A program made the position numbers and the translations under genes. The notes below the pieces were generated by a model. The model had not been told where the DNA came from and made no database searches. It worked only from the letters and a program-made list of their open reading frames with translations. This document shows, in pieces, positions 9,481 to 11,140 of a stretch of 64,000 nt of DNA. How positions within the stretch are numbered: the first letter of the stretch is position 1; each line of letters begins with the position of its first letter. The DNA comes from Octopus vulgaris (lineage: Eukaryota). The stretch lies in assembly GCA_951406725.2 (NCBI GenBank), contig OX597830.1:59272001-59336000 (forward strand). Direction: 5' to 3'.

Positions 9481-10540
9481 TGTGATCTCTCAACACATGA
9501 CCCACCTACTTATGACCCATCTACTAGTGGCACAATTACTTATGACTCATCAATTTGTGATCCATCAACTTGCAATCCATCAACTTGTGACCCATCAACT
9601 TGTAATATATTATCTTGTGACTCTTCAATTTGTGATCCATCAACTTGCAATCCATCAACTTGTGGCTCATCTTTGTGTGATTCATCTACCTGTGACCTAT
9701 CTACTTGGGATCCATCAACTTGTGTTTCAACTTGAGCTTCATCAACTTGTGATGCTTCAACTTGTGATCCTTCAACTTGTGACCCATCAACTTGTAATAT
9801 ATTATCTTGTGATCCATCAATTTGTGATCCATCAACTAGCAATCCCTCAACTAGTGATCCATCAACTTGTGATCCACCAACTTGTAATATATTATCTTGT
9901 GACTCATCAATTTGCGATCCATCAATTTGCGATCCATCAACTTGTAATCCATCAATTTGTGATCCATCAACTTGCAATCCATCAACTTGTGACCCATCAA
10001 CTTGTGACCCATCAACTTGTAATATATCATCTTGTGACTCATCAATTTGTAATCCATCAACTAGTGATCCATCAACTTGTGACCCATCAACTTGTAATAT
10101 ATCATCTTGTGACTCATCAATTTGTGATCCATCAACTTGCAATCCATCAACTTGTGACCCATCAACTTGTGACCCATCAACTTGTAATATATTTTCTTGT
10201 GACCCATCAACTTGTGACTCTTCAACTAGCGATCCCTCCACTAGCAATCCATCAACTTGCGATCCATCAACTTGTAATCCATCAACCTGCAACCCATCTA
10301 TTTGAGATCCATCAACTTGCAATCCATCTACTTGTGACCCATCAACTTGTGACTCTTCAACTAGTGAACCTTCAACTTGTGATCCTTCAGCTTGTGACCC
10401 TTCAGCTTGTGACCCTTCAGCTTGTGATCCTTCAACTTGTGATACTTCAACTTGTGATCCTTCAACATGTGACCCATCAACTTGTGATCCACCAACTTGT
10501 GAGTCATCAATTTGTGACTCCTTAGCTAGGAAGCCATCAA
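9481..10540. repeat. Coding 15-bp minisatellite (catcaacttgtga(t/c)c)n with higher-order variants
   Basis: Directly visible 15-bp period over ~1 kb; continues, degenerate, past the stop codon. Confidence 0.95.
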
Positions 10541-11140
10541 CTTCATGTCTATCATCTTGAGACACACGAACCAGTGTATCAATATCATCATCTTCTAATG
10601 TTTCAGTTTGCAAAAGAATATAATTATTTAGGGATTTCAGGTGATCTTGTAATAATTCTGGTTCTTTATCAGGTTTGCCATTAGTGTCTTCATCACTTTT
10701 ATTACTCATGTCATCATTACCACCACCATGACCACCACCACCACCATCATCATCCTGATTGCAAATACTACCAACACGATCAACACCATTATCACCACCA
10801 CCACCACCACCACCAACACTATTAGCACCATCCCCATTAATGTTACCTTCAGTACCACCATCATAGACATTGGCTGCATAAAACTCTGGATCAATTTGCT
10901 TCTCTAACAAATATTTAGAAATTTCCAAATCTTTTCTTGAAATGTCATCATTGTTGTCAGGAGCAGCTGTCAAGCCTCTTCCTGGAGACATCAAGCTAAT
11001 ACTGGGGCTCTCCTTATGGCAATCTTGAGGCAGATTTTGATCCACTGACTTATGTTGATCCAGTAAATATTGGAGACTCAAGATCAAGCTTTCAGTTGAA
11101 CATTGTGGCTTCAGTTTCAGAAGATATTTATTGAGTTCAC
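9540..11140 (-). CDS. Terminal exon: ~530-aa acidic/Gly-rich extension with (S/L)QV(D/E)G pentapeptide repeats
   Basis: Strong acceptor (T-tract..tcacag) at 11141-11142; phase 1 matches the 13260 donor; open to TAA at 9540-9542 (ORF 9540..11087). Confidence 0.8.

Follow-up and report, generated by a model that had tools for sequence, protein, structure and literature searches.

The 64,000-nucleotide stretch of Octopus vulgaris DNA analysed here (the window) holds the 3' third of a gene for a highly divergent axonemal-type dynein heavy chain, whose predicted last exon adds a 533-residue acidic C-terminal tail ending in 65 pentapeptides. The dynein identity of the gene, its exon anatomy, its frame and the composition of the tail are established below. 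The preliminary description of this locus had proposed that a divergent axonemal-type dynein carries, through splicing, an acidic C-terminal appendage specific to its lineage, and our analysis supports this proposal. It had also held such an extension to be without precedent, which is contradicted by the low-complexity C-terminal tails of class-13 dyneins and the WD40 C-terminal tails of class-10 dyneins found in the accessible text of PMC5100056. The overall explanation that we find best, with confidence slightly above even, is a class-13 dynein with a spliced, disordered polyanion tail that would act as a charged brush.

Host gene and dynein class

The gene model has 21 exons running from 63713 to 9540 on the minus strand, all with AG acceptors, and groups as follows.

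47700-63713, minus strand: seven predicted exons, presumably AAA5 and strut, open when joined, without dynein match by the tools used (63713-63537, 60265-60106, 56511-56366, 54916-54561, 51355-51149, 48505-48333, 47809-47700)
34962-45045, minus strand: five predicted exons, presumably AAA5 extension, AAA6 and lid, the first matching outer-arm dyneins in the PDB (45045-44739, 40853-40585, 38837-38651, 36881-36696, 35305-34962)
19924-34483, minus strand: seven exons, end of the lid and Dynein_C, 314/344 residues identical to protein P0002 (34483-34339, 32431-32326, 30537-30285, 27639-27441, 26401-26223, 24681-24557, 20041-19924)
13260-13353, minus strand: exon with the end of the dynein C-sequence and a strong phase-1 donor, from sequence and splice-site scoring
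9540-11140, minus strand: predicted last coding exon, from a phase-1 acceptor to TAA, encoding the 533-aa C-terminal extension

Joins are in frame at 19 of the 20 modelled junctions, with zero internal stops over 442 + 1362 codons. The AAA5/strut label of 47700-63713 and the AAA6/lid labels of 34962-45045, other than that of the first exon, follow motifs that we take to be those of these domains. Acceptor 48505 was picked to fit the phase: two AG acceptors lie 5 nt apart at 48510-48505 (minus strand), of which only the second is in phase with the strong donor at 51149, and this junction is uncertain. ORF 39347-38958 was dropped as an exon since 40585 joins 38837 directly. The linker, AAA1-4, stalk and N-terminal tail would be encoded upstream of the window.

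Dynein identity comes mainly through P0002, a 344-aa protein that aligns to seven consecutive window exons with 314/344 identities (91%) and one 1-residue indel, and that ends at exon boundary 19924, before the last two exons. P0002 matches Pfam Dynein_C (E=9e-27, model positions 41-269 of 309), which provides the C-sequence of a dynein heavy chain, and its best PDB match is the Chlamydomonas outer-arm alpha chain (E=2.6e-11). It is the one true relative among seven matches to exon 26399-26223 in a search of 1.84 billion representatives; the six others, unrelated-looking repeat proteins, were dropped. A search for P0002 orthologues among proteins of 603-2000 aa, a range that lies below full-length dyneins, gave 0/1048. 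Searched singly, one of nine exons matches a PDB dynein; in Pfam, three single exons match Dynein_C below the cut-off; the exon stretch 45021-44701 matches the outer-arm gamma chain (E=6e-7). The span from AAA5 extension to C-sequence is 552 aa versus 477 in 7kzm_B, about 30 aa of it coming from an inserted repeat, and AAA5 presumably carries two insertions, judging by the spacing that we take as usual. By its sequence, the gene is very divergent from canonical dyneins.

Elsewhere in the window, the broken frames at 4137-7162 (minus strand) resemble what we take to be LINE endonuclease and reverse-transcriptase pieces, and those at 29198-29892 and 33105-33434 presumably mariner transposase pieces; Pfam scans gave no match for three LINE-like frames in 4137-7162 and no transposase family for the mariner-like ones. 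Minisatellites occupy introns at 28357-28673 (46 bp), 27598-27743 (75 bp), 52243-52597 (28 bp) and 61396-61660 (128 bp). Long microsatellites are many, for example (TGTA)176 at 45129-45832. Scanning the window for tRNA and Rfam families gave no match.

The accessible text of Kollmar 2016 (PMC5100056) gives metazoan class-13 dyneins low-complexity C-terminal extensions without sequence conservation, alike only in composition, and among metazoan classes describes such an extension for class 13 only. These dyneins have very weak similarity to canonical ones, a feature common to classes 11 and 12, are present in sea urchin and Capitella, have a class-4-like N-terminal tail and a longer AAA5, and may pair with class 12 (same source and extent). 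The gene studied here combines a low-complexity C-terminal extension, the 533-aa tail, conditional on the predicted splice, with very weak similarity to canonical dyneins, which classes 11 and 12 have as well. We therefore place it, with reasonable though not strong confidence, in class 13 (DHC13), by the published class description. Since simple-sequence tails are already published for class 13, the tail is probably an extreme form of a known class-13 oddity and not a new motor kind.

The gene could alternatively be DNHD1 (class 11), DNAHX/class 12 or a dynein of no assigned class, with the tail an independent gain, a reading that overlaps the other alternatives below and to which we give a minor but real share of belief. 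Classes 11 and 12 are equally divergent and also metazoan, and the best PDB matches are mixed: the C-sequence matches class 4 first, the AAA5 extension class 3. The Atlas neighbour cluster 'Dynein heavy chain 8-like' (0.96) bears a label once given to DNAHX; however, Atlas labels are automatic and the top three clusters are tied (0.95-0.96). The restriction of described low-complexity C-terminal extensions to class 13 also speaks against these other classes. We infer that DNAHX is Kollmar class 12, from its unusual stalk and DNAH8-like origin. DNHD1, which the preliminary description had named as the orthologue to compare, was probably the wrong choice, as human DNHD1 is class 11 in the accessible part of PMC5100056.

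The acidic tail

The tail, read from its amino end to the region beyond its stop codon, contains the following features.

10848-11140, minus strand: unique segment 1, 97 aa, non-repetitive, modelled at low confidence with short helices; searches gave no homologue
10518-10847, minus strand: Gly/Asp/Asn-rich linker and second unique stretch, 110 aa, net charge -18
9543-10517, minus strand: 15-bp coding minisatellite, 65 units of (S/L)Q(V/I)(D/E)G, net charge -74, with higher-order blocks
9471-9545, minus strand: five decayed units (66-70) at and beyond the stop, two of them with TAA in place of CAA
9254-9259, minus strand: nearest AATAAA past the stop, a candidate poly(A) signal, such hexamers being common in the AT-rich DNA here

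The extension consists of 208 unique and 325 repeat residues, in agreement with the unique segment, Gly/Asp tracts and repeat of about 325 aa first reported. Its net charge is -98 over the 532 residues encoded entirely by exon 11140-9540, of which -74 is in the repeat. The repeat motif also stands as given, but the count of about 60 pentapeptides is corrected to 65 units, namely 64 pentamers and one 4-residue unit produced by a 3-nt deletion, the sole indel in the array. Basic residues are, as had been noted, nearly absent from the repeat (1 R, 1 K and 2 H versus 76 D/E), and Asp/Glu occupies position 4 in 59/65 units. The recurring higher-order blocks are recovered as SQ(D/E)(N/D)I units at positions 22, 28, 33, 42, 48 and 61 of the array, delimiting blocks of 6, 5, 9, 6 and 13 units, only some of them multiples of 3. 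At unit position 1, Leu recurs at lag 3 (9 pairs versus 4.1 expected; P=0.001, 9 lags tested).

Since five decayed units continue past it, the TAA stop lies inside the array. Beyond this first stop the frame runs through the decayed units, then a Cys/Gly-rich and a Lys-rich stretch, to a TAG near 9375; the segment 9545-9375 (minus strand) looks as if the tail had recently been shortened. The 65 acidic pentapeptides would have arisen by unequal duplication of the 15-bp unit, and the gene is probably a class-13 dynein whose tail grew by coding minisatellite expansion.

Homology searches with the extension gave no relative within their ranges, which leave out full-length dyneins: residues 1-210 against proteins of 932-2660 aa (0/4794 candidates) and residues 1-97 against proteins of 292-931 aa (0/39). 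The ESM Atlas had no usable match to the extension.

The preliminary description offered two forms for the tail, a beta-solenoid or an acidic disordered appendage. The disordered form is favoured by charge and hydropathy, while the beta-solenoid draws weak support from one of five models, at pLDDT 49. In charge-hydropathy terms each of the three tail segments classes as disordered, the first by a narrow margin; for the repeat, hydropathy is 0.435 versus a boundary of 0.495. Predicted by AlphaFold from its sequence alone, the whole tail has pLDDT 37; for a 155-aa repeat piece, the best of five models has 49 and the others 31-33, and no residue reaches pLDDT 70 in either prediction. Such low values obtained without a deep alignment do not by themselves show disorder, the alignment of the 155-aa piece having been built from the repeat's own overlapping stretches. 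We consider it likely, from amino acid composition, that the tail is mostly intrinsically disordered.

The repeat might instead form a parallel beta-helix with three sides, each coil taking up 15 residues, and about 22 such coils would make a rigid acidic rod on the dynein cap; S/L and V/I would point inward and D-G would sit at the corners. This is the geometry of the best 155-aa model, found in one of the five, with its 15-residue strand period, and the lag-3 recurrence of Leu fits the same period. The model aligns to TibA over 146 residues (Z 14.4, rmsd 2.2) and to antigen 43 over 147 (Z 13.1, rmsd 2.4), and below these three-sided helices to AlbG over 146 (Z 9.4, rmsd 3.4), all comparisons being those of a low-confidence model. 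Pfam CfAFP (PF05264), which we take to be a beta-helix family with a 15-residue coil, scores 56.2 bits on the repeat versus a cut-off of 25.9, summed over six stretches; this match most likely reflects the 15-residue period. Against the beta-helix are its occurrence in a single model, the low pLDDT of that model and of the whole tail, and a Foldseek search with the 155-aa model that gave no match at E<=0.001. Block duplication alone can explain the lag-3 signal, the block lengths are not all multiples of 3, and the Asp/Glu at position 4 would stack like charges. The fold search with the whole-tail model returned nothing usable, and the Pfam pentapeptide-repeat family gave no match on the repeat. 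We regard the beta-helix as unlikely, and keep the disordered polyanion as our reading of the tail.

Splice junction and coding potential

The terminal exon belongs to an ORF of 547 codons on the minus strand (11183-9540), whose 5' end enters a long T tract closing in CACAG at 11141. Exon 13353-13260 begins NRRVH after a TAG acceptor and finishes with the donor CAG/GTAAGC in phase 1; exon 11140-9540 has a T-rich acceptor with CACAG. Joining 13260 to 11140 is in frame and adds 533 residues after ...ALILNP, with the TAA stop at 9542-9540. The claim that the dynein exon splices in phase to a 1.6-kb exon is thus borne out at the level of compatible predicted sites and a frame continuous for 533 aa.

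Scored with matrices trained on our own gene model, the donor at 13260 ranks 5th or better among 3630 minus-strand GT sites, and just two of the other 19 modelled donors outscore it; the chance of a comparable donor within any 30-nt stretch is about 0.2%. By the same matrices the acceptor at 11140 is modest (top 2.2%, at the low end of modelled acceptors), and two of the six best acceptor sites in 13259-9000 outscore it. No better phase-1 partner exon for the 13260 donor was found between 13240 and 11140.

The donor lies where a dynein would normally end. From the CPxY cysteine, exon 13353-13260 runs on for 38 residues (41 to the stop if unspliced); the corresponding distance to the chain end is 40 residues in 7kzm_B and 46 in 7kzm_A. 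This agreement in length identifies the exon as the canonical dynein end and the 533 residues as extra. The ending had been described by the motif W..RGVAL.L, which we take to be the terminal dynein pattern: the canonical length holds, but the match is not exact, the 10-residue C-terminal motif fitting 4/7 fixed positions. The stretch from CPxY to the final Trp (13353-13300, minus strand) looks several residues shorter than in canonical dyneins, with the spacing that we presume for these. Searched singly in Pfam and the PDB, exon 13353-13260 gave no dynein match.

The strongest evidence that the extension is coding comes from its unique part. Its 207 codons hold no stop versus a mean of 16.0 expected, a result reached in 0/5000 shuffles, and the first 96 codons alone are stop-free with P=0.0006. 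These 207 open codons exceed the longest of 358 non-coding stop-free runs (178). A codon model trained on 20 stretches of dynein exon gives codons 1-97 a score of 0.102; the exon mean, by leave-one-out, is 0.05 and that of non-coding sequence -0.107. Among the 358 non-coding runs, 3 equal or beat 0.102.

The open frame over the repeat is weak evidence. That the frame is kept across the minisatellite had been noted before; the frame is indeed open, but its weight is small (P 0.015-0.065). Linking the 40 distinct DNA units in a spanning tree requires 51 inferred mutations, none of them nonsense, for which P=0.015 and 0.017 under two null models and 0.065 under a cyclic-context null with 20 trees. 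Synonymous changes number 17 versus 12.6-13.6 expected, an excess that is not significant (P 0.07-0.19), and one antisense frame is likewise stop-free over the entire repeat.

Two frames on the opposite strand deserve separate mention. The plus-strand frame of PSTCD repeats (9427-10560), which matches Keratin_B2_2 with E=3.6e-22, was rejected: with two stops in the array, and with 7-10 stops in the unique part for each plus frame, it is judged a shadow of the repeat. The second plus-strand frame (HQLV), open for 394 codons, gave no family match.

Taken from splice-site strength and phase, use of the 13260-11140 junction is quite probable. In the opposite case, the dynein would mostly end at ...LILNPGKL* by intronic polyadenylation, since the unspliced frame closes three codons past 13260, and the 1.6-kb frame would be a minor isoform, part of another transcript or a compositionally open G/T-rich repeat. 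The unspliced chain has a canonical 41 residues from the CPxY cysteine, four AATAAA hexamers lie within the first 600 nt of the intron, the repeat is weakly constrained and has a second open frame on the opposite strand, and the extension occurs in no database protein of the lengths searched. These points are opposed by the near-best donor exactly at the canonical end and in phase with the acceptor, by the 207 open codons, longer than any non-coding run, by the first Met of the exon, which comes after 51 open codons, and by the lack of a better phase-1 partner between 13240 and 11140. We judge such an early end improbable. If the junction were unused, the finding would shrink to an open minisatellite beside a divergent dynein gene.

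Gene integrity, proposed role and known relatives

Two features of the coding sequence bear on the integrity of the gene.

45008-45045, minus strand: one-base frame conflict at junction 47700-45045, where the sequence is rich in A; an assembly indel, a missed exon or a true frameshift could explain it
35005-35096, minus strand: dispersed-repeat (SINE-like) fragment of about 92 nt in coding exon 35305-34962, frame kept

The direct 47700-45045 join hits a stop 12 codons on, and among small exons that could mend the phase conflict at 45.0 kb three weak candidates were found, none of which stood out. If real, the conflict near 45015 truncates the protein before AAA6. The SINE-like fragment has at least 11 further copies in the window, with identities of up to 87%; it adds about 30 residues and closes in a poly-Asp run. 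This insertion in frame and the frame conflict make relaxed selection or an assembly error possible. A decaying gene, or one under relaxed selection with the tail as an unselected expansion, would account for both and for the stop within the array with decayed units beyond it. Yet 19/20 junctions are in frame with no internal stop in 442 + 1362 codons, identity to P0002 is 91% with one 1-residue indel, the insertion keeps the frame, and assemblies often go wrong by one base in A-rich runs; decay is a poor explanation.

In the explanation that we favour, the last dynein exon would be spliced to one more exon, and the C-terminal cap would run on into a 533-aa tail made up of two short patches of helix, a Gly/Asp linker and the 65 acidic pentapeptides. 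The tail would be mostly a disordered polyanion, in which constraint acts on composition and an open frame more than on sequence. From its attachment to the cap overlying the AAA ring, it could act as a charged brush that repels the acidic microtubule surface or decoys basic microtubule-binding surfaces, and could damp or space the motor during flagellar assembly. The C-terminal cap regulates force and processivity in cytoplasmic dynein, according to the accessible text of PMC4339881. The electrostatic damping role, which we read from composition, is tentative. It is very unlikely that the translated tail folds, alone or with cations, into an acidic three-sided beta-helix of about 10 nm that mimics tubulin and locks microtubule-binding domains, the gene being the class-13 partner of class 12 and the second chain of dynein-X, with unit number tuning sperm flagellum assembly; if true, this would be a dynein with a built-in, length-variable solenoid inhibitor.

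The tail with its unique peptides and countable repeat would provide direct experimental handles on class 13, and would show a coding minisatellite enlarging the regulatory face of a dynein motor. The accessible text of Kollmar 2016 (PMC5100056) called for experimental data on class-13 dyneins. Our literature search, mostly outside subscription journals, found no octopus dynein tail, no repeat-bearing DHC13 and no later paper on class 13; octopus has 0 mentions in the main text and supplement of PMC5100056. The pentapeptide-minisatellite form is absent from the databases and literature searched; the kind itself is already published.

Comparison with repeat proteins starts from the five-residue period, small-polar-hydrophobic-polar-Gly, which the tail shares, with weak fold similarity, with Rfr proteins (Qnr, AlbG, HetL) and PF05264. 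The core position is V/I here versus L/F in what we take to be the Rfr consensus. The Rfr fold is a four-sided beta-helix of 20 residues per coil; the low-confidence model of the octopus repeat has a period of 15. Spruce budworm antifreeze protein (PF05264) is defined by a Thr-X-Thr ladder and disulfides. The octopus repeat differs in having neither the ice-binding ladder nor disulfides; with 1 Thr and 0 Cys in 325 aa, an antifreeze reading was rejected on composition.

Among dyneins, DHC13 shares with this gene its metazoan origin, a very divergent motor and an unconserved low-complexity C-terminal extension; the difference is the 65-unit pentapeptide minisatellite, the accessible text of PMC5100056 giving no extension length, composition or repeat structure. 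DNHD1/class 11 is likewise divergent and of orphan type, and the accessible text of PMC11785096 connects it with sperm flagella and nodal cilia, but no C-terminal extension is described for it in that of PMC5100056, and its degenerate AAA1 corresponds to a region upstream of the window. DNAHX/dynein-X resembles the octopus protein as a long, insertion-rich, divergent sperm dynein of aquatic animals, with regulation by the C-terminal cap (PMC11785096, accessible text). It differs in being defined by a broken stalk, an AAA4 insert and an altered AAA1, all outside the window, and no C-terminal tail is described in that text. There, Chai et al. present DNAHX as a non-motile sperm dynein paired with an unidentified second heavy chain, for which DNAH6 or DNAH7, not class 13, is suggested. 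The class-10 fungal dyneins, finally, also have a large appendage after the C-sequence, a tail of 1,500 aa with WD40 repeats; unlike the octopus tail, it is a folded propeller and is confined to chytrid fungi (PMC5100056, accessible text).
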